From the NCBI GenBank assembly GCA_021296025.1, contig JAGWBF010000003.1:1-54749 (forward strand): DNA of 54,749 nt. Reading direction: 5' to 3'. The notes under the pieces were generated by a model. It ran no database searches. It was not told the origin of the DNA and was given only the letters and a program-made list of their open reading frames with translations. Positions 3,600 through 49,291 of the stretch are shown here, piece by piece. The translations under genes and the position numbers were made by a program. Within the stretch, counting starts at the first letter, position 1. Each line of letters opens with the position of its first letter. This stretch comes from Dehalococcoidia bacterium (lineage in GTDB: Bacteria; Chloroflexota; Dehalococcoidia; Lucifugimonadales; JAGWBF01).

Positions 3600-4517
3600 C
3601 TAGTACCCCTCGTAGCGAACCATAGCCTCGGCCGCCGGCTCCCCATCGAAAAGATCGGGATGGAGCGCCCGCGCTAGAATGTCCACGCCGTCAACCAACC
3701 GAGGACCTGAGCGGGTGAAGTAGGCGTTTGAGTTTCCCACAAAGACCTGTCCGCATTGCGTGGCCGACAAGGAACTCCAGCCTGGCAGCTCCGTCAGCAG
3801 GGACATCTCGTCCATCCCCCTGTCAACGTCGAAACCACAAGGCGCGACGAGCAGAACATCGGGGTCCTGGGCCACTACCTCATCCCAGTCGGTCCTGCGG
3901 GAGGGACGCCCAGCCCTTCCCAGGCAATCGACTCCGCCGGCTGCTTCTATCATCTCCGGCACCCAGTGACCGGCGTATATCAGCGGCTGAAGCCACTCCA
4001 GGCAGGCCACCCGTTTCAATTTGGCCTGCCCGGTCTTACTCCTTACCTCATCGATCCGACTTTTCATCCCGTCCACCAGTTCTACTGCCGCATCTTCACA
4101 CCCGGCCGCAGCGCCGACGCGCATGACATCATCGAATACATCCTGGAGACATGTAGGGTCCAGGGTGATGATGGTTGGATCTCTCTTCAGATATCTACAG
4201 GCCTCGGCAACCTGCCGGGCGGTGACCGCTCACTCTTCGCAAAGGGCTTGGGTCAGTATGATGTCCGGCTCCGCTTCCCTGAGCACATCCTTGTCTATCT
4301 CATATATGCCCTTGCCCTGGACCAAGCGTTCCCGGATCCACCGGTCTATCTCCCCGCTGCCGGCCGTCCCGTTGTCCAGGGTGCTATAGACCACCTTGGG
4401 GACATCCAGGGCCGCCGCCGGATAGTCGCATTCGTGGCTCACTCCATAGAGACTATCTCCCAGACCGAGGGCGTACACCATCTCGGTGGCCCCGGGAACG
4501 AAGGAACAGATTCGCAT
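3600..4517 (-). CDS. Cytoplasmic periplasmic-binding-protein-fold (BtuF/cobalamin-siderophore type) protein with an in-frame TGA at 4230-4232; candidate selenoprotein (C-E-E-U) or pseudogene
   Basis: ORFs 4230..4532 and 3600..4124 are in the same frame and separated only by one TGA. My read-through translation is ...DIILTQALCEE-[TGA]-AVTARQVAEACRYLKRDPTIITLDPTCLQDVFDDVMRVGAAAG... From memory, family members carry L-C-x-V-C-A-V at this point, so the TGA sits on the second Cys. There is no signal peptide. Start taken at ATG 4517 (MRICSFVPGATEM). Confidence 0.6.
4201..4220 (-). promoter_or_regulatory. SECIS-like hairpin 9 nt downstream of the in-frame UGA
   Basis: Minus-strand RNA GCCCGGCA-GGU-UGCCGAGGC forms an 8-bp stem with one bulged A. 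The apical loop contains GGU, or AGGUU if the closing A-U pair opens. Confidence 0.4.
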
Positions 4518-4679
4518 GAGCACATCCCCCAAGCACAGTTGTCGTGTCCAGGAGCATTATGCCAAGAAGGTCAACTAACGTACAGAACAGACCTTCGAGC
4601 TGCGTTGTGCCAGGAATACTCCCATGATATATTGACGCCACCGACGCCGAGACACGAGCCAGGCACAAAAGGGAACGAC

Positions 4680-5891
4680 ATGGTGCAAGCTCAGGATATA
4701 AGGAACATGAAGCTGGTCTCCCACCATGATCTTGGCGGGTACGGCAACGTCGGCGAGGGAATCGCCATCCACCAGTACCCCGGCGGGCAGCGCCTCCTCT
4801 TCCTGGCCCACGAAAGCTCCCCCAAGGATGTTACGGTGGTGGACGTCACCGACGTCGCCAACCCCAGGGTGGTGAACCAGACGGAGTTGCCCCACCGGGA
4901 GATGCGCTCCAACTCCCTGGCGGCCGTGGGCGACATCCTGTACGTCGCCTACCAGGTGGCCAGGCCGGGAATGAAGCCCGCAGGCATGGGCATTTACGAC
5001 ATCAGCAAACCTGGCGAGCTCCGGCAGATCAGCTTCTTCGACACTTCCGGGCCCGGCTCCAGGGGTGTGCATTGCTTGTGGTGCGTGGACGGGCGCTACG
5101 CCTACTTGAGCACCGGCAGCAGCGACCTCAATCCCCGAAATCCCAAGGACGACCAGTTCTACATGTGCGTGGATGTGAGCGACCCCGCCCAGCCTCAGGA
5201 GGTCGGGCGATGGTGGCTGCCGGGAACCATGGACAGCGATGAGGAAGACCCGCCGGAGAGGCATCCCCACTTCGACACCGGCTTTCGCCTTCACAACGCC
5301 AACGTTTACCCACAGAGACCCGACCGGGCCTACCTGGGATACATAGACGCCGGATTCATCACCCTGGACATATCGGACATGGCCAAGCCAAAAGTGGTCA
5401 ACCATGTGGACTACCACCCACCCCTCATCGGCTTCACCCACACGGTGGTCCCCCTGTTCCAAAGGGAGCTGCTGGTGGTCAGCGAGGAAGCTATTACCCA
5501 GGATGGGTGTGCCGACTGGCCCAAGCTCGTGTGGATCGTTGATGTCAGCGTCGAGTCGAACCCTGTGATGCTCAGCACCTTGCCGATGCACAAGGAAACC
5601 TACGAGAACCTGCCGGGCCGCTACGGCGCCCACAACATTCACGAGAACCAGCCCGTGCCGACATCCCACATCGACGAGAACATCGTTTATGGCACCTACT
5701 TCAACGGAGGAATCCGTGTGCACGACATCTCCGACCCCTTCAGACCCGAAGAGGTGGCCTACTTTGTGCCGCCCGTGCCTGAGGGTGCCCCAGCCAACGG
5801 GGTCAACGATGTGTACGTGGACGAAAATCAGCTGATCTATACGGTGGACCGCATCGCGGGCGGGCTGTACATCTTGGAGCCCGACTTCTAG
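4680..5891 (+). CDS. LVIVD-repeat beta-propeller protein
   Basis: Only the C-terminal 403 aa of the 711-aa track ORF look real. The upstream part is antisense to the binding-protein gene. Repeated hydrophobic-D-(I/V)-(S/T)-D/xxP units: VTVVDVTDVANP, MGIYDISKPG, FITLDISDMAKP, VWIVDVSVESNP, IRVHDISDPFRP. Confidence 0.7.
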   Translation: MVQAQDIRNMKLVSHHDLGGYGNVGEGIAIHQYPGGQRLLFLAHESSPKDVTVVDVTDVANPRVVNQTELPHREMRSNSLAAVGDILYVAYQVARPGMKPAGMGIYDISKPGELRQISFFDTSGPGSRGVHCLWCVDGRYAYLSTGSSDLNPRNPKDDQFYMCVDVSDPAQPQEVGRWWLPGTMDSDEEDPPERHPHFDTGFRLHNANVYPQRPDRAYLGYIDAGFITLDISDMAKPKVVNHVDYHPPLIGFTHTVVPLFQRELLVVSEEAITQDGCADWPKLVWIVDVSVESNPVMLSTLPMHKETYENLPGRYGAHNIHENQPVPTSHIDENIVYGTYFNGGIRVHDISDPFRPEEVAYFVPPVPEGAPANGVNDVYVDENQLIYTVDRIAGGLYILEPDF

Positions 5892-8521: not shown

Positions 8522-9499
8522 GTGAAAGCTGTAGTCATCCACGAACTGGGCTCGTCGGATGTGCTCAAGTATGAGGATATGCCGGACCCTCAGATCAGGC
8601 CAAGGCAGGTGCTTGTCCGCATCAAGGCCGCTTCCATCAACCGGGGCGACCTGGGCCGGCGTGAAGGGACCTACCGGGGCGCAACCGCGGGAGCAGCCCT
8701 GCCCCTAGTGCTTGGGTGGGATGTCGCAGGCGAGATCCTGGAGGTAGGCCAAGAGGTGGAAGGGCGCCACGTGGGCCAGAGGGTGGTGGCTACCCTTGCC
8801 CAGGGGGGCTACGCAGAGCTGGCAGCAGTGAACGTGGCAGGCACGGTGCCCATACCGGACAGCCTTTCCTATGAAGAGGCGGCAAGCATACCCATAGCTT
8901 TCCTCACCGCATGGTTTGCGTTGCTGAAGATTGGTGAACTCCAGGACGGAGAGGTAGCCTTAATCCAGTCCGGAGGCTCCGGCGTGGGCATGGCAGCCAT
9001 CCAGATCGCCAAGCACGCGGGAGCCACGGTAATTACCACCAGCGGGACTGAGGATAAGCTGCAACGCTGCCGAGAGATGGGGGCGGACCTCGCAATCAAC
9101 TACAGGCAAGGCGATGTTCCGGCAGAGGTATCCAGTTTTACCGCCGGTTCAGGAGTGAACTACGTCCTGGAATCGGTAGGTGGCGAGACCTTCTCTAACA
9201 GCCTCAAGTGTCTTGCAGCCGGTGGTCGCCTGGTGACCGTGGGCAACACTTCCCAATCGACCTCCCCGGTTGATGCGGGAATGCTTGTTCAGAGGGGTCT
9301 TAGAATAATCGGCTTCTCCCTGTCCACTCAAATGGGAAGGGGAGGCGTCATGGGCGAGTTATACCGCATCTTGGAGCTGTTCGAGCAGGGCGCGCTGAGG
9401 ACAGCAGTGGACAGGGTGTTTCCTCTGAAAGAGGCTTCCGAGGCCCATCGCTACATGGCTGACAACCGGAACTTCGGTAAGGTGCTCCTGGTCCCCTGA
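8522..9499 (+). CDS. NADPH:quinone oxidoreductase / zeta-crystallin-like MDR family
   Basis: VKAVVIHELGSSDVLKYEDMPDPQIRPRQVLVRIKAASINRGD plus the GGSGVGMAAIQIAK Rossmann motif. I prefer the GTG start at 8522. The longer track ORF (from 8147) overlaps the divergent hydantoinase gene. Confidence 0.85.
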   Translation: MKAVVIHELGSSDVLKYEDMPDPQIRPRQVLVRIKAASINRGDLGRREGTYRGATAGAALPLVLGWDVAGEILEVGQEVEGRHVGQRVVATLAQGGYAELAAVNVAGTVPIPDSLSYEEAASIPIAFLTAWFALLKIGELQDGEVALIQSGGSGVGMAAIQIAKHAGATVITTSGTEDKLQRCREMGADLAINYRQGDVPAEVSSFTAGSGVNYVLESVGGETFSNSLKCLAAGGRLVTVGNTSQSTSPVDAGMLVQRGLRIIGFSLSTQMGRGGVMGELYRILELFEQGALRTAVDRVFPLKEASEAHRYMADNRNFGKVLLVP

Positions 9500-9513: not shown

Positions 9514-10896
9514 CTACATGCGAGGCCTAGGCGCAGTGGGTACAACCGGAGGCATAAGCTCCAGCCCTATGGCCTTTTCGCACCAGCGAGCCGCTGCTAG
9601 AAGCTTCCCCTCTCCGAACAGGTGGCCCTCCAGCTGGATCCCCAGGGGCAGCCCTTCCAAGCTTAGACCCGACGGCAGGGAGATGGTCGGCAGCCCCGCG
9701 GAGGTCCAGGGGGTCTGGAACATGGGGCTTCCCGTGGTCCCCCCGTCCAGGGGAGGCGCGGGGCTGGGGGCGGATGGAGTAAGGAGGACATCCACCGACC
9801 TGGCAAGGGCATCCATCTCCGCCCTATGTCGGCGTCGTAGCCTCTGGGCCTGCAGATAGTGCACGCCGGGTATCAGCTTGCCTATTTCGATCCACCCACG
9901 CAGCTTGGGGCTGTAGTCATCGGCCCTGGCATTGAACATATCTTCGTGGTATGCGGAGCATTCCACGTCGGTTATGGTCCGGTGGGCAGCGTAAATGGTC
10001 GCAAAGTTTGGTGGCAGCGACACCTCGACCACGTCGGCGCCGCGAGAGGCGAAGTGCTGGGCCATCTCCTCGGTGTGCCTTCGGGTCTCGGCATCGCAGT
10101 TTTCCAGGAAGAACTCGCGGATGAGACCGATCCTGGGAGCCAGAATAGGAGAGTTCAGCATCTCCCGATACTCATCGACGGGCTCCCAGGCTGAGCACGG
10201 GTCGTTGGGGTCGTAGCCCGCCATCGCGTCCAGCATTATGCCCGCATCTTCGACGGTGCGAGTCAGTATCCCCACCGTATCCATGGAGTAGCTAACCGGG
10301 ATAACACCGAAGCGGCTTACCCGTCCGTAGGTGCCCTTCAGACCGACGATGCCGTTGTAAGCCGCCGGGCGGCACGTCGAGCCTGCCGTTTGGGAACCCA
10401 GAGCACCGGCGCACATGCGGGTAGCCACGGCGACCGATGATCCGCTGCTGGAGCCTCCCGGCGTTCGAGAGGCGTTCCATGGATTGATCGTTGGAGAAGG
10501 GTCGGAAGTCGCAAATTCCGTAGTAACAGCCTTGCCCAGCACGATGGCACCCGCCTGCTTCAGCCGAACCACCGAGGTTGCATCGTGATCAGGAACGAAG
10601 TCTGCGAGCACCTTGGAACATGCCGTGGTCTTCATACCTGCAGTGTAGTAGATGTCCTTCAGTCCGATGGGCACCCCGTGAAGAGGCCCCAGCACATCCC
10701 CCTCGGCTGCTTGTTGGTCCCGACGGTGGGCCGCCCCCAGAACCTCTTCCCTATCGATGGTCACCCATGCGTGGAGGCTGGGTTCCAGCTCATCAATCAG
10801 GTCCAGGAGGGCAGTGCTCAGTTCTACCGACGAAACCTCACCGGTGCGTATAGCACCTGAGGCTTGGGCGATATTCAGATCATAAAGCTGGGGCAT
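9514..10896 (-). CDS. Amidase signature (AS) family enzyme (GatA-like amidase)
   Basis: 460 aa with GVPIGLKDIYYTAGMKTT and the GGSSSGSSVAVA amidase signature. Confidence 0.9.
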   Translation of the reverse strand: MPQLYDLNIAQASGAIRTGEVSSVELSTALLDLIDELEPSLHAWVTIDREEVLGAAHRRDQQAAEGDVLGPLHGVPIGLKDIYYTAGMKTTACSKVLADFVPDHDATSVVRLKQAGAIVLGKAVTTEFATSDPSPTINPWNASRTPGGSSSGSSVAVATRMCAGALGSQTAGSTCRPAAYNGIVGLKGTYGRVSRFGVIPVSYSMDTVGILTRTVEDAGIMLDAMAGYDPNDPCSAWEPVDEYREMLNSPILAPRIGLIREFFLENCDAETRRHTEEMAQHFASRGADVVEVSLPPNFATIYAAHRTITDVECSAYHEDMFNARADDYSPKLRGWIEIGKLIPGVHYLQAQRLRRRHRAEMDALARSVDVLLTPSAPSPAPPLDGGTTGSPMFQTPWTSAGLPTISLPSGLSLEGLPLGIQLEGHLFGEGKLLAAARWCEKAIGLELMPPVVPTAPRPRM

Positions 10897-10956: not shown

Positions 10957-11589
10957 CTATTTAGTTGAGATCTCGATGGTGTTTATGGTGACATCTTCCA
11001 AGGGCTTGTCACTGGCCCCCGTGCGGACCCGGGAGATGGCCTCCGCCACGTCCTGACCTGTAGTCACCGTCCCAAAGATGGTGTGGCCCCCGTTCAGGTG
11101 GGGAGTGGGCACCGTTGTGATGAAGAACTGGCTTCCATTGGTGCCTGTTCCTCCACCCCGGTTTGCCATGGCAAGATAGCCTGCCCGGTCGAACTTCAAT
11201 TCAGGATCGATCTCGTCGGCAAACTGGTAGCCTGGCCCACCAGTGCCGGTGCCGGTGGGGTCTCCACCCTGGATCATGAACTGGGGGATGACACGATGAA
11301 AGATGATGCCATCATAGTAGTCGTCCTTGGCAAGAAACACGAAGCTGTTGACGGTGTTGGGAGCTTGTTCGGCGTACAAGTCCACTACTATGTCGCCCAT
11401 GCTGGTGTTTATGGTCGCCGTGTAGTTCTTCCCGGGCTCTATTACCGTGGCCGGGAACTCCGAGTACTGTTTCGCCATGCTACCTCCGGGGGTTGCAGTA
11501 GGAGTCTCAGTAGGGGAAGCCCCGCCGCATGAGACCGCCATCAACATCACAAGGGCGACCAGGAAGGACATCGCCGCCAATCTGAGCAT
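10957..11589 (-). CDS. Cyclophilin-type peptidyl-prolyl cis-trans isomerase, lipoprotein
   Basis: Signal peptide ending LMAVSCGG (lipobox). The cyclophilin core has [15 protein letters not shown] and SQFFIT. Confidence 0.9.
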
Positions 11590-23329: not shown

Positions 23330-23701
23330 ATGGAGCTTGGCGCATTTTCCATCAGCCTTGCGGTGGAGGACCTGGAAGCATCCAGGGAATTCTACGAGAA
23401 GTTCGGGTTTGAGGTGGTAGGAGGCGAGGCCTCGGAAAACTGGCAGATACTACGGAACGGCTATTGCACGTTGGGGCTGTTCAAGGGGATGTTCGACAAG
23501 AACATCATCACCTTCAACCCAGGCTGGGACGACAAGGCGCAGCCCGTGGCGGATTTCACCGATGTGCGCGAGCTGCAGCGCCAGCTTAAGTCCAGGGGTG
23601 TAGGTTTCATCAGCGAGGCAGACGAGGGAGGGTCAGGACCTGCCAGCTTCGTCGTCCTCGACCCCGACGGCAACCCCATCCTCGTCGATCAGCATATCTG
23701 A
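23330..23701 (+). CDS. VOC (glyoxalase/bleomycin-resistance/dioxygenase) family protein
   Basis: [25 protein letters not shown] ... [15 protein letters not shown]. An AAAAGGAGAG RBS lies upstream of the ATG at 23330. Confidence 0.75.
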
Positions 23702-23765
23702 TCCCGGCCCCAGCGGGAGCACCGCAGGGTTCCGCCGGGATCTCCACCAATAGAGGCAACAGGGG

Positions 23766-24689: not shown

Positions 24690-25643
24690 CTATTTCTTTG
24701 GTTCCAGCTTTCGGAAAATCCGCCGGACGTTCTCCACGTTGGGCAGCATCTTGTGGAATATGGGGGGCATCTTGCCCCGCACCAGCGCGCGCAGTCCGAC
24801 GGGTGCGAAGCTTTGCATGGCCCGAATGTTGAACATGCCTACCGTCTTCACGGGAAGCTTCAGCTCATCCAGCCGGCCGCTATGGGAAACCAGCTCGACG
24901 AAAGCATCGGTGTGCCGTGCTCCAATCTCCTTATCGAACCCGGCATTCATCGCCAAGTCCCGCATCACCATGATGCGGTCCATGGGGGCCACCCCTTTGG
25001 GGCAGACCTGGACGCACTCCATACAGCGGGTGCAGTCCCAAATGCCCGAGTACTGGCGCAAGCTGTCCAGCCTGGGCTTCTCCTGGGAGTCCCGGGGATC
25101 AGCGACGAAGCGGTAGGCCTTGGCGAGGGCCGCGGGCCCCAGGAAATTGGAGTCCACCTCCAGCACAGTACAGTCGGATACGCAGGCGCCGCACAGGATG
25201 CAGCCCATGACCCCGGCCAGGTGCAGCATATCCTCGTTTGGAGCAAGGTACTCTCCCTCGGGCTCCGGGCCCTCGGGCTGAAGCCACGGATCGACAGCCT
25301 TGACCTTGTCCCAGAAGGGGGTCATGTCCACCACAAGGTCCTTGATCACTTCCATGTTGCCCATGGGTTCTATCGTGACACTCCCACCGTCGGGCGCGAT
25401 CTCGCTCACCCGGGTCTTACAGGCAAGCTGAGCGTGGCCGTTCACCCTCATCGAACATGAGCCGCAGATTGCGCTTCGGCAAGAGCATCTAAGGGACAAG
25501 GTCCCGTCGATGTCTTCCCTGATGTTGATCAGGGTATCCAGCACGGTGGTGTACTCATCCACCTCGACCTTGTACTCCGACCAGTAGGGAATGGGCTCTT
25601 TGGCTTCGGGGTCGTATCGTCGTACCTTTACGGCCAGATCCAT
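24690..25643 (-). CDS. sdhB: Succinate dehydrogenase/fumarate reductase iron-sulfur subunit, with a C-terminal extension
   Basis: 2Fe-2S CSCRSAICGSCSMRVNG; 4Fe-4S CILCGACVSDC; the third cluster motif CTRCMECVQVCP has four Cys. Start set at ATG 25643 (MDLAVKV), which forms an ATGA overlap with the sdhA stop. Confidence 0.85.
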   Translation of the reverse strand: MDLAVKVRRYDPEAKEPIPYWSEYKVEVDEYTTVLDTLINIREDIDGTLSLRCSCRSAICGSCSMRVNGHAQLACKTRVSEIAPDGGSVTIEPMGNMEVIKDLVVDMTPFWDKVKAVDPWLQPEGPEPEGEYLAPNEDMLHLAGVMGCILCGACVSDCTVLEVDSNFLGPAALAKAYRFVADPRDSQEKPRLDSLRQYSGIWDCTRCMECVQVCPKGVAPMDRIMVMRDLAMNAGFDKEIGARHTDAFVELVSHSGRLDELKLPVKTVGMFNIRAMQSFAPVGLRALVRGKMPPIFHKMLPNVENVRRIFRKLEPKK

Positions 25644-27322
25644 CAGTACTTCCTTTCCTCGGGCGTCCACTGGGTGATTACCACCGGACTGTAGGAGATC
25701 TTCGGACCCTCGGGGGTTGATGTCACAAGGATGTGCTTGAGCCAATCGGCGTCATTCCGCTCCGGGAAGTCCGTCCGTGAGTGCGCCCCCCTGCTTTCCT
25801 TGCGTTCCAGGGCGCTGACAGCTATGGCCTCAGCACAGTCCAGCATCAAGCCCAGCTCCAGGTCGAACACCATGTCTGTGTTGAACGTGCGTCCCTTGTC
25901 TTCTACCGGCACCGTTGTGTACCGCTCTTTGAGCTGTTGGATGGTGTCCAGGGCCTCTTTCATGCCGTTCTGATCCCGGTACACACCCAAGTGGGCATTC
26001 ATGGCAGTCCCCATATCCAGGCGGATCCTAGCGACGCGGTCCCCGTTGGCATCCCTGGAGAGTATTTCAGCCAAGCGTTTCTCTTCCTGCCCAACCAGTT
26101 CTTCGACATCCAGGGGTTCCTGCGTCGTTCCCTTGGATACCTCAGCGGCATGGTTACCGGCACGGTGTCCGAAGACGACGGTGTCCAGCAGCGAGTTTGC
26201 TCCCAAGCGGTTGCCCCCGTGAACGCTGACGCAGGCGCACTCGCCTGCTGCATATATACCGGGGACACTTGTGAGACCATCCACGTCGGTCTTTATTCCG
26301 CCCATCTGGTAGTGCATTCCCGGCTGCACAGGGATGGGTTCTTGAGTTATGTCAATGCCCAATAGGTCGAGGCCAATGTCATATATCTGAGAAAGCTTTT
26401 CCTTTATGAGCTGTTCTCCCAAGTGCCGGCAGTCCAGCAGTACGGACCCATTTATGCCGTTGCCTTCGGCTATTTCGATTGTCTCGGAGCGGGACACAAC
26501 ATCCCTGGAAGCCAGCTCCATCATGCTGGGGGCGTATCTCTCCATAAACCGCTCGCCGTCCTTGTTGAGCAGGTAAGCTCCTTCGCCTCGCGCTCCTTCT
26601 GTGATCAGCACTCCGCTGCCTTTCAGCGTGGTCGGGTGGTACTGGACCATCTCCATGTCCATGAGGGGGACCCCAGCCCGGTACGCGAGGGCTATGCCAT
26701 CGCCAGTCACGATCAGTGCATTGGTGCTGGGTTCGAACACGCGTCCCAGCCCTCCTGTACACAGGATTACGGTCTTGGCCTTGATCAGGTACACCCGGCC
26801 CGTGCGGATTTCCATGGCCAGGACGCCGCAGCACTTACCTTCCTGCATAACCAGGGATGTCACGAACCACTCTTCGTAGCTGGTGATTTCCGACTTGAGG
26901 AGCTGCTCGTATAGGACGTGGAGGATCGCCTGCCCGGTGAAGTCGGCCACGAAGAAGGTTCGCGCCCGCCTTTGGCCCCCGAAGGCCCTGGTGCCCAGGC
27001 GTCCCTCATCATCCCTATTGAATATCACGCCCATGTGCTCCAGGGATATGAGTTCCTCCCCCGCCACCTGGCACATAAGCTCGATGGAGTCCTGGTCCCC
27101 CAGGTAATCGCTGCCCTTGACGGTGTCATAGGCGTGCTCTTCCCAAGCATCGCCGCGGTCAACCAGCGCCGCGTTTATTCCACCCTGGGCGGCGTTGGAG
27201 TGGCTGCGCACGGGATACACCTTGCTGATGATCCCCGTATTGGCTCCCATCTCTGTGGCAGCCAGGGCCGCCCTCATTCCTGCCAGGCCGGCGCCCACTA
27301 CCAGCACATCATGCTCAAGCAT
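25643..27322 (-). CDS. sdhA: Succinate dehydrogenase/fumarate reductase flavoprotein subunit
   Basis: 559 aa with [13 protein letters not shown], the covalent-FAD His context [11 protein letters not shown] and the capping-domain motifs. Confidence 0.92.
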
Positions 27323-34609: not shown

Positions 34610-35653
34610 CTACCGATCCCTCGTGATTACCAGCGCTCCGATTATGGTGGCCAGCAAAAGCACCGCGGCCACCTCAAAGGGCAGAACGTAATCGTTTATC
34701 AGCAGGTCTCCTATTCCCGTGCGCTCCTCGGCCCCTTCGTAGCGTCCCTCGAAGACATTCAACACAGGGAAGTTCTCGACGGACACGCTCTGCCCGTCAA
34801 CGGACAATATACCGGTGGCTTCCCCGGGAACCACCGAGTATTTCAGGTCTCCGTCAGAGCCGACCAACCACCACCTGTCCTCTTGTACCTTCGGACGTAT
34901 CTCGACTACATCCTGCACAGGAGAGTCGGGCGCGTTTAATGCGCTAATCAGGTCCTCGGACAAGGGTGTGGGCTCCGTGGCCTCCATGAACTCCTCGGCA
35001 AACGCAGGATGCAATCTGGCGACCAGCCGACCCTGTTCCAGGAAAATCAATTCGGCCTGCAGTATCTGCGCGTCCGTCTCATAGTCAATCGCTTCCGAAG
35101 TCCGAAGGTTGGCCCTATGCTCCTCAGCAATTGCCAGGTTCTCATCAATGCGCTCTTGGATATGCCTCCCCACACCATCTTCCCAGTCAGCAGGGAGGCC
35201 GCCCACTGTGTTGGACTGCACCGCTTCGGTAGCCCAACCCAAGCCCCGGACATCCAGTCGTTCCTGGATAAGCTGCTGCTGACCAGTTGAAGCTACATCC
35301 AACCCCGGTTGCTGGTTCCAGTCGGTGTCCAATGCTACGTAAATAAGGGCAGCCAACAGCAGCGCTGGGAGTACGACCGCGGGAAGCTGAAGCCGATTCG
35401 GCAGGTTGCCTTGCTGCACCTCCCTGGTGAGCATGATGGCGAATACGATGAGGATAGCCACAGCGCCCACGTAAATCAGTAGCTGAACGACAGCCAGGAA
35501 CTCGGCGCTCATCAGCACGAAGAGGCCCGCCACCGTCATGAAGACGAGGACAAGGAGAAGGGCTGCCCGAAACACATCCCTGACAAGTACAACGCCCAAG
35601 GCGCCACCGACACCTGCGGCCGACAGCATCCAGAATGCTATCTCCTGAAACAC
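34610..35653 (-). CDS. nuoJ: NADH-quinone oxidoreductase subunit J carrying a ~200-aa hydrophilic insertion
   Basis: The N-terminal 108 aa are NuoJ TM1-4 (LAVVQLLIYVGAVAILIVFAIML). The C-terminal YVLPFEVAAVLLLATIIGALVI is the conserved last helix. Residues ~109-318 are acidic and hydrophilic with no TM segment. Total length is 347 aa versus the usual ~170-200 aa. Confidence 0.85.
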   Translation of the reverse strand: MFQEIAFWMLSAAGVGGALGVVLVRDVFRAALLLVLVFMTVAGLFVLMSAEFLAVVQLLIYVGAVAILIVFAIMLTREVQQGNLPNRLQLPAVVLPALLLAALIYVALDTDWNQQPGLDVASTGQQQLIQERLDVRGLGWATEAVQSNTVGGLPADWEDGVGRHIQERIDENLAIAEEHRANLRTSEAIDYETDAQILQAELIFLEQGRLVARLHPAFAEEFMEATEPTPLSEDLISALNAPDSPVQDVVEIRPKVQEDRWWLVGSDGDLKYSVVPGEATGILSVDGQSVSVENFPVLNVFEGRYEGAEERTGIGDLLINDYVLPFEVAAVLLLATIIGALVITRDR

Positions 35654-36459: not shown

Positions 36460-37599
36460 TCACGACGTTACTAGGGCGAGGGGAATATTTATTGCAGCCA
36501 TAAGGCCCAGGTCCCCCCTCGAAAGGGCTCCTGTGTCATCTCGAAGCCAGTAGACCTGCAGGGTGGTTGCGAAAATGTTGATCAAGCTCAGCGGGAACAG
36601 GAATTTCCACGCGAAGGCCATTATCTGGTCTATACGCAGCCTGGGGAAGGTTGCCCTGATCCAGATGAACAGGAACACAAAGAACCCCAATTTCATCAGG
36701 AACCAGAGGGCCCCCAGCTGGCCGGAAAGAAATGGACCGCTCCAGCCGCCCAGGAACAGGGTGGATGCCACAGCCGATGCTGCGACCACGCCTCCGAACT
36801 CTGCCATCTGCACCAGGGCAAACTTGATGCCGCTGTACTCGGTGTGATAGCCGGCCACAAGCTCCGATTCCGCTTCCACGATGTCGAAGGGGGTGCGGTT
36901 CAGCTCCGCCGAGATTCCCAGCAGGAACACCAATATCCCCAGGGGCTGCACCACGATAAAGGGCAGATGCTGCGCGTTGACCACATCCACCAAGCTCATG
37001 GACCCTGCCAGAAGTACGATGCCGACCATGGAGAGAACAGTGGGAATCTCATAGCTGATCAGCATGGCCACGCCCCGCATAGCTCCGAACATGGCGTAGC
37101 GGTTCCCCGAAGACCAGCCTGCCATGAAAATGCCCAGGGTGCTCAGACCGGTAATGGCCACAAGGTAGAGGACCCCGATATTCAGGTCTGCCAGGAAGGT
37201 ATTCCTGGCGATGGGAACCACCGCCAGCCCGGCTATCAACGGGAATACAACCACGATGGGCACCATCAGGAACGCAATCCGGTCCGCGCCCTGGGGCACC
37301 AGATCTTCCTTTGTCAACAGCTTTACAAGGTCGGCGATCGGCTGTAGGAGTCCGAAGGGTCCCCACCGGTTGGGCCCCAAACGGTTTTGCATTCTCCCCA
37401 GTACGCGCCTCTCCAGCCACACGTACAGGGCAGCGCCCAGAAGCACGCCATTGACCAGGATAAGAATGATCAGAAATCCCGAGATGATGTGGTCGAGCCA
37501 GCACAGGGAACTTGGGATGAACTCGCCAATGGCGTTGTAAATGTGCCTGTAAAGCACATTGTCATGGAACAGGCTGTCGGGGCCTATGCTGCAGTTCAC
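36460..37599 (-). CDS. nuoH: NADH-quinone oxidoreductase subunit H
   Basis: 379 aa with ERRVLGRMQNRLGPNRWGPFGLLQPIADLVKL and AELNRTPFDIVEAESELVAGYHTEYSG. GTGA overlap with the nuoD stop. Confidence 0.9.
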   Translation of the reverse strand: MNCSIGPDSLFHDNVLYRHIYNAIGEFIPSSLCWLDHIISGFLIILILVNGVLLGAALYVWLERRVLGRMQNRLGPNRWGPFGLLQPIADLVKLLTKEDLVPQGADRIAFLMVPIVVVFPLIAGLAVVPIARNTFLADLNIGVLYLVAITGLSTLGIFMAGWSSGNRYAMFGAMRGVAMLISYEIPTVLSMVGIVLLAGSMSLVDVVNAQHLPFIVVQPLGILVFLLGISAELNRTPFDIVEAESELVAGYHTEYSGIKFALVQMAEFGGVVAASAVASTLFLGGWSGPFLSGQLGALWFLMKLGFFVFLFIWIRATFPRLRIDQIMAFAWKFLFPLSLINIFATTLQVYWLRDDTGALSRGDLGLMAAINIPLALVTS

Positions 37600-38702
37600 C
37601 GATCAACCTCGCCCATGTTTATGTCGATGCTCCCCAGGTTGACGATCATGTCTGCCAGCTTCCAGCCGATGAGCAGGTCCTTGATCATCGTCAGGTTGAG
37701 CAAAGAGGGCGAACGTATCTTGCATCGGTAGGGAGATATCCCCCCGTCGCTGATCAGATAGAAGCCAAGCTCGCCCTTGGGGGATTCAACGCGCCCGTAG
37801 GACTCAGCCCCCTTGGGCGGACGCAGCACCAGGGGCAGCTCCGCTCGCACCGGGCCCGGGGGCATCTGCTCCACGCATTGTCGGACGATTCTCAGGCTCT
37901 GGCGCATCTCCTGCATTCGCACCCAGAACCTGTCCAGGTTGTCGCCGTTGGTGCCGACCGGCACATCGAACTCCAGCCCGTCGTACACATCGTAGGGGTC
38001 GGCCTTTCGCCAGTCCCAAGCCAGCCCGCTGGCCCGCAGTATGGGGCCGCTGGCCGAGCAGGCGATAAGCCTGTCCAGGGGCAGATTGCCGACGTTTCGC
38101 ACCCTCACAAGAATGATTTCGTTCTCCGCAAGGAGCTGTTCCAGCTCATCCAGGTAGGACGGCATGTAGTCCAGGAACCGGTCCAGGGCGGGCCAGAAGT
38201 CCTCGGGGGCGTCGTAATACACCCCCCCGGGCCTCATGTAGCTCACGGTAATGCGAGCGCCGCACAGCATCTCGAAAAGGTCCAGGATGCGCTCCCGCTC
38301 CCGGAAGCAGTACATCAACGGCGTGCCCAAGGCCCCCAGGTCCTGGAGCAGGAAGCCGGTGGCCACCAGGTGGCTGGCGATACGCTGGAGCTCGGCTGCC
38401 ATAACCCTCAGGTACTGGCCCCTTATGGGCACCTCTATGCCCATGAGTCTCTCGACGGCAAGGCAATATGCTTGATTGTTGGTCATGGAGGCCACGTAGT
38501 CCAGCCGGTCGGTGAGGGTGACAATCTGGGTATAGTTGCGCTCTTCGGCAAGCTTTTCGGTGCCCCGGTGCAGGTACCCGAATATGGGCTCCACATCCAC
38601 GATCATCTCGCCATCGAAGGTCACGCGAAGGCGAAAGACCCCGTGGGTGCTGGGATGCTGGGGCCCGATGTTGACGGTGATGGGCTCGGTGCGAATCGGC
38701 AT
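37596..38702 (-). CDS. nuoD: NADH-quinone oxidoreductase subunit D
   Basis: NIGPQHPSTHGVFRL plus the C-terminal SIDINMGEVDR. The ATG at 38702 lies 8 nt after the nuoC stop. An alternative ATG at 38726 would overlap nuoC. Confidence 0.88.
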   Translation of the reverse strand: MPIRTEPITVNIGPQHPSTHGVFRLRVTFDGEMIVDVEPIFGYLHRGTEKLAEERNYTQIVTLTDRLDYVASMTNNQAYCLAVERLMGIEVPIRGQYLRVMAAELQRIASHLVATGFLLQDLGALGTPLMYCFRERERILDLFEMLCGARITVSYMRPGGVYYDAPEDFWPALDRFLDYMPSYLDELEQLLAENEIILVRVRNVGNLPLDRLIACSASGPILRASGLAWDWRKADPYDVYDGLEFDVPVGTNGDNLDRFWVRMQEMRQSLRIVRQCVEQMPPGPVRAELPLVLRPPKGAESYGRVESPKGELGFYLISDGGISPYRCKIRSPSLLNLTMIKDLLIGWKLADMIVNLGSIDINMGEVDR

Positions 38703-38709
38703 GGTCGGC

Positions 38710-39168
38710 CTAGTACTCCACCGCATCCTGGAAATCTTTGCGCAGCGGATGCCCCGGAAAGCCTTCCCAAAGCAGGATTCGCTTCATGTTGGGGTGGCCC
38801 TCGAACCTGACGCCCATCAGGTCCCAGATCTCTCTCTCCTGGTAGTCAGCCCCCGGCCAAATCTCGATGACTGACGGGACTTCAGGTTCGCCCCTGCCGG
38901 GCACCCTTGTCCTCAGGAAGGTGCTGTGGTTGAACTCGAAAGAGGTCATCAGATAGACGACCTCGAAGTGGTCTATGTAATCAACCGCCGAGATGGAGTT
39001 CAGGAATTCGAGCTTCAGCTCGGGGTCTTCCTTCAGGAACCTGCAGACATCCGCGATAAGGGGCGGTTTTATCCACAGGTGAGATGCTGTCTGCTCTTCC
39101 ACAGAGTCGGGATAAGCTGCCTGAATGTGCTGGGCCAGTTCCCCCACATCAAGGAAGCTGGTCATCAT
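38710..39168 (-). CDS. nuoC: NADH-quinone oxidoreductase subunit C
   Basis: 152 aa with [41 protein letters not shown]. Confidence 0.9.
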
Positions 39169-45272: not shown

Positions 45273-45590
45273 ATGCCCGCAGACTTCGTGAAGGTGGCCC
45301 AGACTTCGGACCTGGCTCCGGGGCAGATGAAGCAGGTGCAGGCCGGTGATGAGCTGATCCTGCTGATTAACCTCGACGGGGAGTACTTCGCCATGGATGA
45401 CATCTGCTCCCATGCCTATGCCCCCCTGACCCAGGGCGACCTGAACGGCGAAGAGGTGGAGTGCCCGCTGCATGGCAGCGCCTTCAACGTGAAGACCGGG
45501 GAGGTGCTGTGTCCCCCCGCCAACCAGTCCCTCGAGACCTTTGCGGTGCGCATAGAAGGGGACGACATCCTCGTCGGCCCCAAGGGCTGA
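45273..45590 (+). CDS. Rieske [2Fe-2S] ferredoxin (non-heme iron oxygenase ferredoxin component-like)
   Basis: 105 aa with CSHAYAPL...CPLHGSAF (CxH...CxxH). GGAGGAG RBS. Confidence 0.88.
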   Translation: MPADFVKVAQTSDLAPGQMKQVQAGDELILLINLDGEYFAMDDICSHAYAPLTQGDLNGEEVECPLHGSAFNVKTGEVLCPPANQSLETFAVRIEGDDILVGPKG

Positions 45591-45637
45591 AACTATGGGC
45601 ATAGCCTCGTCCCGATGAGGGGGCGCCCATTTGGGGA

Positions 45638-46375
45638 TCACCGGCCCCTGGTGTCTCCCCACAGGTAGATGTGCAGACGGGGGCTGAACCGCAGGTTTTC
45701 GTTCACGCAAAGCTGGCTCAGCCAGTCGCTCCGCTCCTGCAGCACCGAAGAGGTGCGCCCCTCGGGGGAAAGGAGCACCCGCTCCCTGGAAAGAGACATT
45801 TCATCCATAAGCCTGCGGACCTCTTCCACGTCCGATTCCCTCGTAACCACGAACTTGAAATAGGCCTGCGAGATAGCTGCGAAGGACTTTAGCGCCTCCG
45901 GGACATAGCGTTCCTCCGACGTATTCCCCGACGTGTCAAGCTTGGGAGAGACGTTCCACTGATCGATAAGCGCACCCATTTCAGGCGTGGGCGCGATGGT
46001 GCCGTTGGTCTCCACCTCGAAGGTGAATCCCCGGCCCTTAAGCGATCGGACCAGCCCAGCCATCTGGTCCTGCTGCAACATCGGCTCTCCCCCGGTGATG
46101 ACAAGATGGGAACAGCCGTATTGCAGCACCTCGTTTTCGACGTGTTCTGGCGAGAGTTCCACAACCTCTTTTTGGAAATCGTAGTTCTTCCAGTCCCAGG
46201 TGTACTTGGTGTCGCACCAGGTGCAGGCCAGGTTGCACTGGGCCAGCCTCAGAAACACCGCTGGTGTCCCCGCCATCGTACCTTCGCCCTGAAGGGTGTG
46301 AAATATCTCCGGCCTGCCTTCGGGTCGACAGCTTACTTTCAACAACGTTTCCGAAGGGTGGGAATCCGTATTCAC
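45638..46375 (-). CDS. queE: 7-carboxy-7-deazaguanine synthase (radical SAM)
   Basis: TLQGEG...CNLACTWCDTKYTW cluster motif. Last gene of the que operon. Confidence 0.88.
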   Translation of the reverse strand: MNTDSHPSETLLKVSCRPEGRPEIFHTLQGEGTMAGTPAVFLRLAQCNLACTWCDTKYTWDWKNYDFQKEVVELSPEHVENEVLQYGCSHLVITGGEPMLQQDQMAGLVRSLKGRGFTFEVETNGTIAPTPEMGALIDQWNVSPKLDTSGNTSEERYVPEALKSFAAISQAYFKFVVTRESDVEEVRRLMDEMSLSRERVLLSPEGRTSSVLQERSDWLSQLCVNENLRFSPRLHIYLWGDTRGR

Positions 46376-48149: not shown

Positions 48150-48178
48150 TTGTCATTCCTAGGGCCCTGGGGTATCCT
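48150..48178 (+). promoter_or_regulatory. Weak candidate promoter for the divergent FTR-like operon
   Basis: TTGTCA (48150-48155), a 17-nt spacer, then TATCCT (48173-48178). If used, the first gene must start downstream of 48178, for example at TTG 48232. Confidence 0.25.
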
Positions 48179-48621
48179 TGTTGTATCTGGCAGATACGGG
48201 AGGGCCCCTGGCCCAAACGGGGGAAAAGGCGTTGAAAGACCAAGCCCCAAACGGCGCAGCGGCCGAGACCGAACTGCTCCAATCTCCGGCAGAGCTGGAG
48301 GAGATACAGGAGCTTTTGAAAGAGGCGGTAGCTTCGGAGCCCTCCCTTCGCCTGTTGCCCAAATTCGGCATGGCGCGGGCCGGCAGTCCCGACTTCCACA
48401 GGACCTACTTTGCTATCCACTGCACCTGTGGGACGGCGGGTCTTGTTTGTATAGAAACAGCCAAGTCCAAGACCCTGTCCCAAGTTGAGGATGCGCTGCC
48501 TTCCCTGAAGCAGCACCTGGTGGGCAGGGCCAAGCAGTTTGCAAGCATGCCATGCTCAATGCACACCAGCATGCGCTCTGCGGGCATCCAGGCTTCAATG
48601 CCAGGAAGTGGGGGAGGCTGA
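48178..48621 (+). CDS. Uncharacterised protein, first gene of the FTR-like operon (start uncertain)
   Basis: 147-aa ORF with a coding-like helical acidic segment (ELLQSPAELEEIQELLKEAV), then a Cys/His cluster (HCTCGTAGLVC ... MPC). I recognise no family. Its TGA at 48619-48621 is 1 nt from the ATG of the next gene, and the RBS of that gene lies inside this ORF. Confidence 0.45.
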   Translation: MLYLADTGGPLAQTGEKALKDQAPNGAAAETELLQSPAELEEIQELLKEAVASEPSLRLLPKFGMARAGSPDFHRTYFAIHCTCGTAGLVCIETAKSKTLSQVEDALPSLKQHLVGRAKQFASMPCSMHTSMRSAGIQASMPGSGGG

Positions 48622-48622
48622 T

Positions 48623-49039
48623 ATGGCGAAGGAACTGGACCAGGACAAGGCGATGGAAGGCACCATCCGCTTCTCGGAAAAGTACGTCGAGAAGAGCGGG
48701 TACAAGTTCTTTCCCGACCAGGAGGTGGTGCGCCTAGTACAGGAGGGCCTGGCCCGCAACCAAGTGGAGTACGGCTACCGCTACTGCCCTTGAATGCCCC
48801 TCAGCGGCGATCCCGTCGAGGACCGCAAAAAGATTTGCCCCTGCGACCGGCACCATGAGGATATAGAGAGGGACGGGTTCTGTATCTGAATGTTCTTTGT
48901 CAGCGAAGAGTTTCTTCGCCAACAGGAACAGGGTAGTGAGATCGAACAGACCATTGGCGATGCAGTCCAGCCCGGCGAGGGCCTGTTTGACCAACCATAT
49001 AAATCGAAGGCAGACCAGAAGGGGAGTCAGAGTACTTAG
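48623..49039 (+). CDS. Ferredoxin:thioredoxin reductase catalytic-subunit (FTR-beta) homolog with two in-frame TGA codons (48791-48793, 48887-48889); candidate double-selenocysteine protein (U57, U89)
   Basis: GGGGGAGG RBS 6 nt before ATG 48623. Read-through translation: MAKELDQDKAMEGTIRFSEKYVEKSGYKFFPDQEVVRLVQEGLARNQVEYGYRYCP-U-MPLSGDPVEDRKKICPCDRHHEDIERDGFCI-U-MFFVSEEFLRQQ...ST*. It aligns with cyanobacterial FtrC (...YAKRTDTYFCSD..VVIEGLARHKEELGSPLCPCRHY...WNCPCVPMRERKECHCMLFL). The CPC/CPC/CHC pattern becomes CPU/CPC/CIU. All three pieces are in one frame. Confidence 0.7.
48799..48821 (+). promoter_or_regulatory. SECIS-like hairpin after the first UGA of the FTR-like gene
   Basis: CCUC-A-GCGG-[CGAUC]-CCGU-C-GAGG: two 4-bp helices around an A/C mismatch, beginning 5 nt after the UGA. 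This is the weakest of the four hairpins. Confidence 0.3.
48903..48919 (+). promoter_or_regulatory. SECIS-like hairpin after the second UGA of the FTR-like gene
   Basis: GCGAAG-AGUUU-CUUCGC: a perfect 6-bp stem (7 bp with the A-U closing pair, leaving a GUU loop), beginning 13 nt after the UGA. Confidence 0.45.
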
Positions 49040-49054
49040 AGGAGCTGAGAAGCT

Positions 49055-49291
49055 GTGAGCATAACCGTTTACACATCCGTTGGTTGAGGCCCCTGCCACA
49101 TGGTGAAAGTGTACCTTTCACAAAAGGGGTTGGAGTTTACCGAACGGAACGTTTCACTGGACGAAAACGCAAGGGATGACCTGCTATCCCTGGGATATCG
49201 CAGCACACCCGTGACTGTGATAGACGACCAGAAGGTCGTCGGGTACAGCCCTCCCAAGCTGGAAGAAGCCCTGCAAGCGGCCGGGATCTAG
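49055..49291 (+). CDS. Glutaredoxin/NrdH-like small redoxin with an in-frame TGA at 49085-49087; candidate selenoprotein with a U-G-P-C active site
   Basis: GAGGAG RBS 10 nt before GTG 49055. Translation: MSITVYTSVG-U-GPCHMVKVYLSQKGLEFTERNVSLDENARDDLLSLGYRSTPVTVIDDQKVVGYSPPKLEEALQAAGI. The track ORF (49100..49291) starts after the active site and lacks beta-1 and the CxxC loop. Reading through the TGA restores a complete Grx fold with the Sec at the first CxxC position. Confidence 0.7.
49103..49121 (+). promoter_or_regulatory. SECIS-like hairpin after the UGA of the redoxin gene
   Basis: GUGAAAG-[UGUAC]-CUUUCAC: a perfect 7-bp stem with GU in the loop, beginning 15 nt after the UGA. Confidence 0.45.

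Follow-up and report, generated by a model that had tools for sequence, protein, structure and literature searches.

The central result of this analysis is that four in-frame UGA codons in a 54,749-nucleotide stretch of DNA from a Dehalococcoidia bacterium (assembly GCA_021296025.1, contig JAGWBF010000003.1) are, with a probability that we put at roughly 0.9, selenocysteine (Sec) codons of the standard bacterial pathway, each with a selenocysteine insertion sequence (SECIS) element inside the open reading frame (ORF), and that they lie in three known selenoproteins. The stretch, in the following referred to as the window, represents the first 54749 bases of a contig of 70491 bases, and the genome assembly comprises 1.95 Mb with 60% GC. 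Two of the codons (UGA 1 and UGA 2) belong to a homolog of the catalytic subunit of ferredoxin:thioredoxin reductase, one (UGA 3) to a glutaredoxin/NrdH-like protein encoded next to it, and one (UGA 4) to a BtuF-like protein. An initial annotation, made from the sequence alone, had proposed that these UGAs are recoded as Sec by means of downstream hairpins, and this is now supported by the Sec machinery of the genome, by the catalytic Cys positions at which the codons occur, by the conservation of UGAs and hairpins, and by the usage of stop codons. All four TGAs were found where they had been placed, at positions 48791-48793, 48887-48889 and 49085-49087 on the plus strand and at 4232-4230 on the minus strand, and all are in frame and spanned by Pfam domains.

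The reductase gene (48623-49039, plus strand) encodes, when TGA is translated as U, a protein with the motifs CPU57 ... CPC ... CIU89. The protein matches PF02943 (FeThRed_B) with an E value of 3.7e-26 and reaches 226 bits on NCBIfam NF041072 (FtrB_double_U), for which the cut-off is 160, and this score together with the two in-frame UGAs at CxU positions makes it a member of the FtrB double-selenoprotein family. U57 (UGA 1) and U89 (UGA 2) align with the later of the two Cys in the CPC and in the CxC motif of solved FTR/FDR chains (4tpu, 7pwe, 1dj7, and others). According to the mechanism published for such reductases, these positions form the redox-active pair, as is stated for a two-Sec metagenomic homolog (PMC2398784). 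The window's genome was compared with 100 others of the same order, and 42 of these 101 keep both TGAs at 61-96% identity, and 7 have distant stop-free forms. Including a further collection scan, from which 80 of 211 reductase relatives were taken, both codons are TGA in 122/122 FtrB loci, several of which represent the same genome twice, and UGA 2 always follows 32 codons past UGA 1. In a phylum-wide sample of 401 genomes, the two-TGA form was found only in the window's own genome; all other finds were distant forms with Cys and a small number of forms with one TGA.

The redoxin gene (49055-49291, plus strand) encodes 78 residues with a UGPC active site, in which UGA 3 specifies U11. The protein matches PF00462 (Glutaredoxin) with an E value of 3.6e-14 and 53.1 bits, the cut-off being 22.9, and this fold together with the UxxC motif assigns it to the Sec-glutaredoxin-like proteins; on the more specific selenoprotein families of NCBIfam it stays below the cut-offs (YruB, 72.8 versus 88.55; Uxx_star, 43.1 versus 66). 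A UGPC gene lies downstream of the reductase gene at all 42 two-TGA loci, and UGA 3 and the UGPC motif are conserved in 42/42 orthologs. The BtuF-like gene (3600-4517, minus strand) carries UGA 4 (4230-4232) as the codon of U96 in a CEEU motif. Its product matches PF01497 (Peripla_BP_2) with an E value of 3.2e-22, and by this fold and by the Sec that ends a CxxC-type motif it belongs to the BtuF-like CxxU proteins. The codon is TGA in 29 orthologs and TGC or TGT in 14, and these 14 fetched Cys orthologs read CxVC at the site of CEEU. The nearest public proteins have 197 residues and cover 64% of the query; public Sec forms are mis-annotated as truncated because gene callers started after the TGA. 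A predicted ORF of 711 codons overlaps the BtuF-like gene (3756-5891, plus strand), and its only domain, an LVIVD repeat, occupies the distal part. We rejected it as an LVIVD-repeat gene extended too far upstream, the actual start of which is probably near 4672, in divergent orientation to the BtuF-like gene.

The components required for Sec decoding are encoded in the genome. There is a tRNA-Sec with the anticodon TCA, and genome profile searches identified selB (309.8 bits), selA (538.4 bits) and selD (214.1 bits), all above the curated cut-offs, which together constitute the bacterial Sec-decoding trait. On contig C121 of this genome (G000), selD itself contains an in-frame TGA at 8579, within a CAGU motif, and changes frame at about 8878 in a run of seven G, which is probably an assembly error. 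The selB gene (G000:C12:3779-5625) contains a run of N.

Three of the four hairpins drawn in the initial annotation, those after UGA 2, UGA 3 and UGA 4, exist as written and are conserved as RNA structures. The SECIS element for UGA 2, GCGAAG(AGUUU)CUUCGC (48903-48919, plus strand), has a free energy of -7.0 kcal/mol, or of -7.7 kcal/mol with an A-U closing pair. In 42 orthologs, 100% of the alignment cells are paired, and the only three changes are all compatible with G-U pairing; RNAalifold predicts the element from 73 distinct sequences, and its Leu codon CTT is invariant, although CTT accounts for only 13% of the Leu codons of the genome. The element for UGA 3, GUGAAAG(UGUAC)CUUUCAC (49103-49121, plus strand; -5.9 kcal/mol), is paired in 99.6% of cells in 42 orthologs, and its stem keeps the rare codons CTT (13% of Leu), TCA (6.6% of Ser) and AAA (16% of Lys). 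The element for UGA 4, GCCCGGCA(GGU)UGCCG-A-GGC (4220-4201, minus strand; -11.5 kcal/mol), is paired in 96.6% of cells. Covariation in orthologs had been named as a check on the hairpins, and it was found for two of them. At UGA 4, compensatory changes occur at three pairs (4218/4203, 4216/4206 and 4215/4207; 12 cells in all), as C-G to G-C in most sequences and twice as G-C to A-U, partly via amino-acid changes, and the covariation score was reached by none of 500 shuffles. At UGA 3, one pair (49109/49115) shows a compensatory G-C to U-A change, achieved via Val-to-Leu and Leu-to-Ile substitutions. Furthermore, the reductase gene shows a marked constraint on its synonymous positions: the median normalised codon entropy is 0.17 in the 9 codons whose third base is paired in one of the two stems, and for 46 conserved codons outside this set it is 0.79 (Mann-Whitney p 1.6e-4).

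Hairpins also follow Sec rather than Cys in two of the families. At the site of UGA 4, a hairpin of at most -5.9 kcal/mol is present in 27/29 Sec orthologs and in only 3/14 Cys orthologs. Distant reductase homologs have a hairpin at 3/3 Sec sites versus 3/31 Cys sites; in 14 all-Cys homologs, it occurs at none of the first sites and at two of the second sites, and in two homologs whose only Sec is at the second site, a hairpin is present at that site. One Cys-form ortholog of the BtuF-like gene has TGT in place of TGA and a hairpin much like that of the Sec forms (-10.5 kcal/mol), which may be left over from a recent change of Sec to Cys.

For UGA 1, two overlapping hairpins compete. The one in the initial annotation, CCUC-A-GCGG(CGAUC)CCGU-C-GAGG (48799-48821, plus strand), exists as written and is with -9.7 kcal/mol more stable in the window's own sequence than the second one, GCG-A-UCC(CGUCGA)GGA-C-CGC (48807-48826, plus strand), which has -5.9 kcal/mol and here consists of 3+3 base pairs around an A-C mismatch. 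Judged by ortholog conservation, the element that serves UGA 1 is nevertheless most likely the one at 48807-48826, and the hairpin at 48799-48821 is probably not a SECIS. The opposite assignment, that 48799-48821 is the working element here and that 48807-48826 is only a by-product of the conserved peptide GDPVEDR, could draw on this energy difference, on the G at position 2 of the 48799-48821 loop, and on the pairs of that stem being mostly kept within the genus, but the comparison over longer distances makes it improbable. Only 85.1% of the cells of 48799-48821 are paired, and among 36 distinct orthologs third-position changes disrupt three of the eight pairs, in 10, 21 and 11 cases. The third positions that vary belong to the stem of this hairpin, and those that are frozen to its loop. 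In 75 distinct sequences, its stem has 0, 1, 2, 3 or 4 mismatches in 14, 29, 23, 8 and 1 cases, hence two or more in 32/75. The 48807-48826 stem, whose conserved form is GCGAUCC(NGUNGA)GGAUCGC, has no mismatch in 39 of these 75 sequences, one in 36, and two in none, and its two single mismatches never co-occur (0/10 versus 24/65, Fisher p 0.025). Counted over 42 orthologs, 99.1% of cells are paired for 6 pairs and 93.3% for 7 pairs. The mismatched A-C of the window is A-U in most orthologs, and those with the full 7-bp inverted repeat reach -10 to -12.5 kcal/mol, RNAfold choosing the element as the minimum free energy (MFE) structure. RNAalifold also selects 48807-48826, not 48799-48821, from the 75 distinct sequences; a hairpin that it gave for the first 27 distinct sequences was set aside, as it spans the UGA itself and would be melted by a ribosome at this codon. 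Moreover, the 48799-48821 loop begins 14 nt past the UGA, which is below the published range of 16-37 nt (PMC13188914), and its G and U are not adjacent. This drawing is the part of the initial observation that was not confirmed. A distant reductase (43% identity), which comes from a different family of the phylum and has Sec at the first site only, retains a hairpin of the 48807-48826 type, CGAUCC(CGUGUU)GGAUCG, after its UGA, and nothing was found after the Cys at its second position.

With 48807-48826 assigned to UGA 1, the four elements share a common anatomy. The loops are CGUCGA, AGUUU, UGUAC and GGU for UGA 1 to UGA 4, start 20, 19, 22 and 17 nt after the UGA, and place the G of a GU at +25, +24, +27 and +22 from the U of the UGA. 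This G is invariant in orthologs; the loops have 6, 5 (or 3), 5 and 3 nt, and the stems 6-8 bp. We compared these hairpins with chance by a rule that demands at least 6 bp with one interruption allowed, a loop of 3-7 nt that starts 17-30 nt from the U of the UGA, and a free energy of at most -5.9 kcal/mol, which is that of the weakest element. A hairpin of this kind was found after 15.4% of 15000 random sense codons and after 32/303 true TGA stops; when one of the first two loop nucleotides must also be G, the numbers fall to 8.9% and 21/303, and with GU to 2.1% and 2/303. Of the 20 TGA stops in the window, 3 are followed by a hairpin by this rule, 2 by one with an early loop G, and none by one with GU. 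A single hairpin thus means little, and four of four by chance is unlikely. The true TGA stops of a glyoxalase-like and a Rieske gene are followed by strong hairpins on the plus strand (23699-23760, -11.6 kcal/mol; 45588-45650, -10.0 kcal/mol), which are probably terminators, and a hairpin after a TGA is therefore not by itself a SECIS.

A number of points weigh against our interpretation, and several of them would fit the view that the hairpins are chance or compositional by-products of GC-rich coding DNA, with readthrough or Sec insertion at the UGAs taking place without them. The frequency of 15.4% after random codons is one such point. A comparison of folding energies with shuffled sequences, also suggested in the initial annotation, discriminates poorly: the 60-nt windows have -17.0 to -17.4 kcal/mol and the shuffled averages -12 to -15 kcal/mol, and the MFE z-scores are only -1.39, -1.92, -0.66 and -0.80. 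Folding energy by itself is weak evidence, and the question is decided by the comparison of orthologs. Rfam scans of the whole window at the gathering threshold, and of both regions at E <= 10, returned no SECIS family, only unrelated chance matches. The GU rule (G at +20 to +28) was fitted to the four hairpins themselves, and it misses selD (loop GUG, G at +31) and a second rhodanese gene (loop GGC); the additional Sec genes of the genome mentioned below were chosen by the hairpin rule and are illustrations, not a test. SECIS 1 and SECIS 2 show no double compensatory change, both being backed by conservation and wobble-compatible changes only, and the peptide at both is itself invariant, so that constraints on protein and RNA are separable only at third codon positions. 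The 48807-48826 hairpin was found post hoc in the same alignment; the distant one-Sec reductase provides independent support for this hairpin. The orthologs are kin, and their counts overstate independence; in this assembly, selD is frameshifted at the run of seven G and selB is broken by Ns; and Sec insertion and SelB binding are predictions. Nevertheless, hairpins that arise by chance would hardly be present at 4/4 in-frame UGAs as opposed to 3/20 TGA stops in the window, hold frozen rare codons in their stems, acquire compensatory changes in part through amino-acid changes, and follow Sec but not Cys in the BtuF-like and reductase families, and we therefore regard this explanation as very unlikely.

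TGA also serves as a true stop in this genome. Among 1054 long non-overlapping ORFs, 538 end in TAG, which is the commonest stop, 305 in TGA, and 211 in TAA. The 20 predicted genes of the window that end in TGA include an sdhA-like flavoprotein gene (25643-27322), nuoD (37596-38726) and the gene that opens the reductase operon (48178-48621), which had been named as examples of true stops and proved to be such. A scan of the 70-kb contig for TGAs flanked by coding potential on both sides yielded six: the four described here, 35288 on the plus strand and 55903 on the minus strand. The candidate at 35288 was dropped, as it is antisense to a nuoJ-like gene and without a Pfam match, and 55903 lies outside the window, which means that the initial list of in-frame UGAs in the window was complete. 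As TGA ends 305/1054 long ORFs and coding potential on either side is seen for no more than six TGAs of the contig, UGA recoding is local and context-dependent and not a change of the genetic code; TGA is neither rare as a stop nor frequent inside genes, as it would be under NCBI tables 4 or 25, and the earlier argument against a global reassignment is upheld by the stop usage together with the Sec machinery. The idea that the TGAs are sequencing errors, pseudogene lesions or sense codons throughout the genome can practically be dismissed, even though homopolymer frameshifts do occur in the assembly (at least one, in selD), as the same TGAs, flanked on both sides by intact frames, are found again in dozens of independent genomes, TGA ends nearly a third of the long ORFs, 95/109 same-frame TGA junctions lack a hairpin of at most -5 kcal/mol by our rule, many of these 95 with long open frames on either side and resembling gene boundaries, and the Sec machinery is encoded.

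From the E. coli system, a mechanism can be outlined in which SelB, carrying Sec-tRNA(Sec) and GTP, would bind the apical loop of each element and deliver the tRNA to the ribosome at the UGA, where it would out-compete release factor 2; TGAs without such an element would terminate. In the reductase, Sec at both redox-active positions would likely form a diselenide beside the 4Fe-4S cluster, and the UGPC redoxin is the probable substrate of this neighbouring enzyme. Gene order and family knowledge suggest a ferredoxin-driven reductase in which a diselenide replaces the disulfide and which would reduce a selenol-thiol redoxin, with electrons flowing from reductase to redoxin.

The operon order is a gene for a 147-residue Cys-containing protein, the two-Sec reductase gene, and the UGPC redoxin gene. 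The first gene (48178-48621, plus strand) ends in a TGA that has no hairpin after it. The conserved protein that it encodes carries conserved Cys and His residues (CxC ... CxxH), has no Pfam or NCBIfam match, and all its Atlas matches are below 0.9. A sequence resembling its gene was found upstream of the reductase gene in one ortholog, and the protein might be a partner of the reductase.

Further Sec-gene candidates are present elsewhere in the genome. On the same contig, about 1.1 kb past the end of the window, an OsmC-like gene (55829-56284, minus strand) has the in-frame TGA 55903 within PF02566, and this TGA is followed by GGUCGC(CGUG)GCGACC (-9.1 kcal/mol, G at +25), which makes it a fifth Sec gene. 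Rhodanese, OsmC, UGSC, two AhpC/TSA and GRDB-like genes have in-frame TGAs, Pfam domains and similar hairpins with the G at +21 to +25. A gene for a luciferase-like (Bac_luciferase/LLM) oxidoreductase (G000:C121:10905-11906, plus strand) has an in-frame TGA at 11232 inside its Pfam domain, followed by CGGCCCA(GGU)UGGGCCG (-11.9 kcal/mol), and within the genus, 6/6 genomes keep both TGA and hairpin. No stop is present in the next relatives (66-68% identity), of which the two with a readable site have Cys and no such hairpin. The terms 'luciferase' and 'monooxygenase' are absent from the accessible text of a 2026 review (PMC13188914), and the LLM oxidoreductase may be an unlisted selenoprotein family. 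In purD (G000:C7:9453-10739, plus strand), an in-frame TGA at 10653 in the GARS_C domain, 27 codons before the next stop, is followed by a hairpin of -8.8 kcal/mol; this TGA could be a Sec codon, an error, or accompanied by a chance hairpin.

The present analysis contributes a covariation-supported SECIS element in the BtuF-like family, the position at which the first FtrB SECIS is conserved, and the Sec-redoxin gene that is linked to the reductase gene. For annotation, it is relevant that standard gene callers split or shorten such Sec genes, and also that in a genome of 60% GC a lone hairpin after a TGA is no evidence on its own. More tentatively, and with odds that we see as somewhat less than even, SelB of this Dehalococcoidia lineage might accept a very compact SECIS, with a stem of 6-8 bp, an N-G-U loop and the G at +22 to +27, two of which fit 96 nt apart into a single gene of 138 codons, and undescribed selenoprotein families such as the LLM oxidoreductases might still be hidden in these genomes. 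If this is true, a lineage-specific SECIS rule could recover them. The reductase beside a Sec-redoxin gene furthermore offers a natural case of a probable diselenide site near an iron-sulfur cluster, on which literature at the family level exists.

The families and the mechanism are already known, and the interpretation in the initial annotation was right, with one hairpin to be redrawn. The SECIS of E. coli fdhF is a hairpin of about 40 nt with a bulged U and a loop G-U some 23-24 nt from the U of the UGA, which is recognized by SelB; the elements described here have a similar G-U distance but are shorter and have no conserved bulged U. The bacterial SECIS model of Zhang and Gladyshev, as given in PMC13188914, has a loop of 3-9 nt, a stem of 4-16 bp, a spacing of 16-37 nt and an MFE of at most -7.5 kcal/mol, and expects one of the first two loop nucleotides to be a G, with G or U usually coming next. 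Our elements resemble it as stem-loops inside the ORF just 3' of the UGA with a small loop and an early G, and they agree with it in the size of loop and upper stem and in the spacing of 17-22 nt between UGA and loop; they differ in a narrower geometry (G at +22 to +27) and in that two hairpins, taken alone, have only -5.9 kcal/mol, the others having -7.7 and -11.5 kcal/mol. Dehalococcoidia are reported with 46-49 selenoproteins in BSepDB (PMC13326102); in the available main text of that paper, the terms ferredoxin, periplasmic and cobalamin do not occur, and its supplement text also lacks siderophore and glutaredoxin. A review table lists 'Cobalamin-binding protein BtuF, CxxU' and 'Ferredoxin-thioredoxin reductase, CxU, 2 Sec' (PMC13188914). 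The former, which was the only relevant entry found in the accessible literature on periplasmic binding proteins as selenoproteins, shares the Peripla_BP_2 fold and the CxxU motif with our BtuF-like protein, and the two are likened by this fold and motif. Sec-glutaredoxin-like proteins have long been known (PMC1088965; PMC2398784), and the redoxin shares their small glutaredoxin fold and the Sec as the first residue of UxxC, but scores under the named NCBIfam cut-offs. The two-Sec ferredoxin-thioredoxin reductase was first reported from ocean metagenomes, together with a predicted SECIS (PMC2398784), and as far as that report and NF041072 describe the family, our reductase, with its two Sec at both redox-active Cys positions, shows no essential difference from it.

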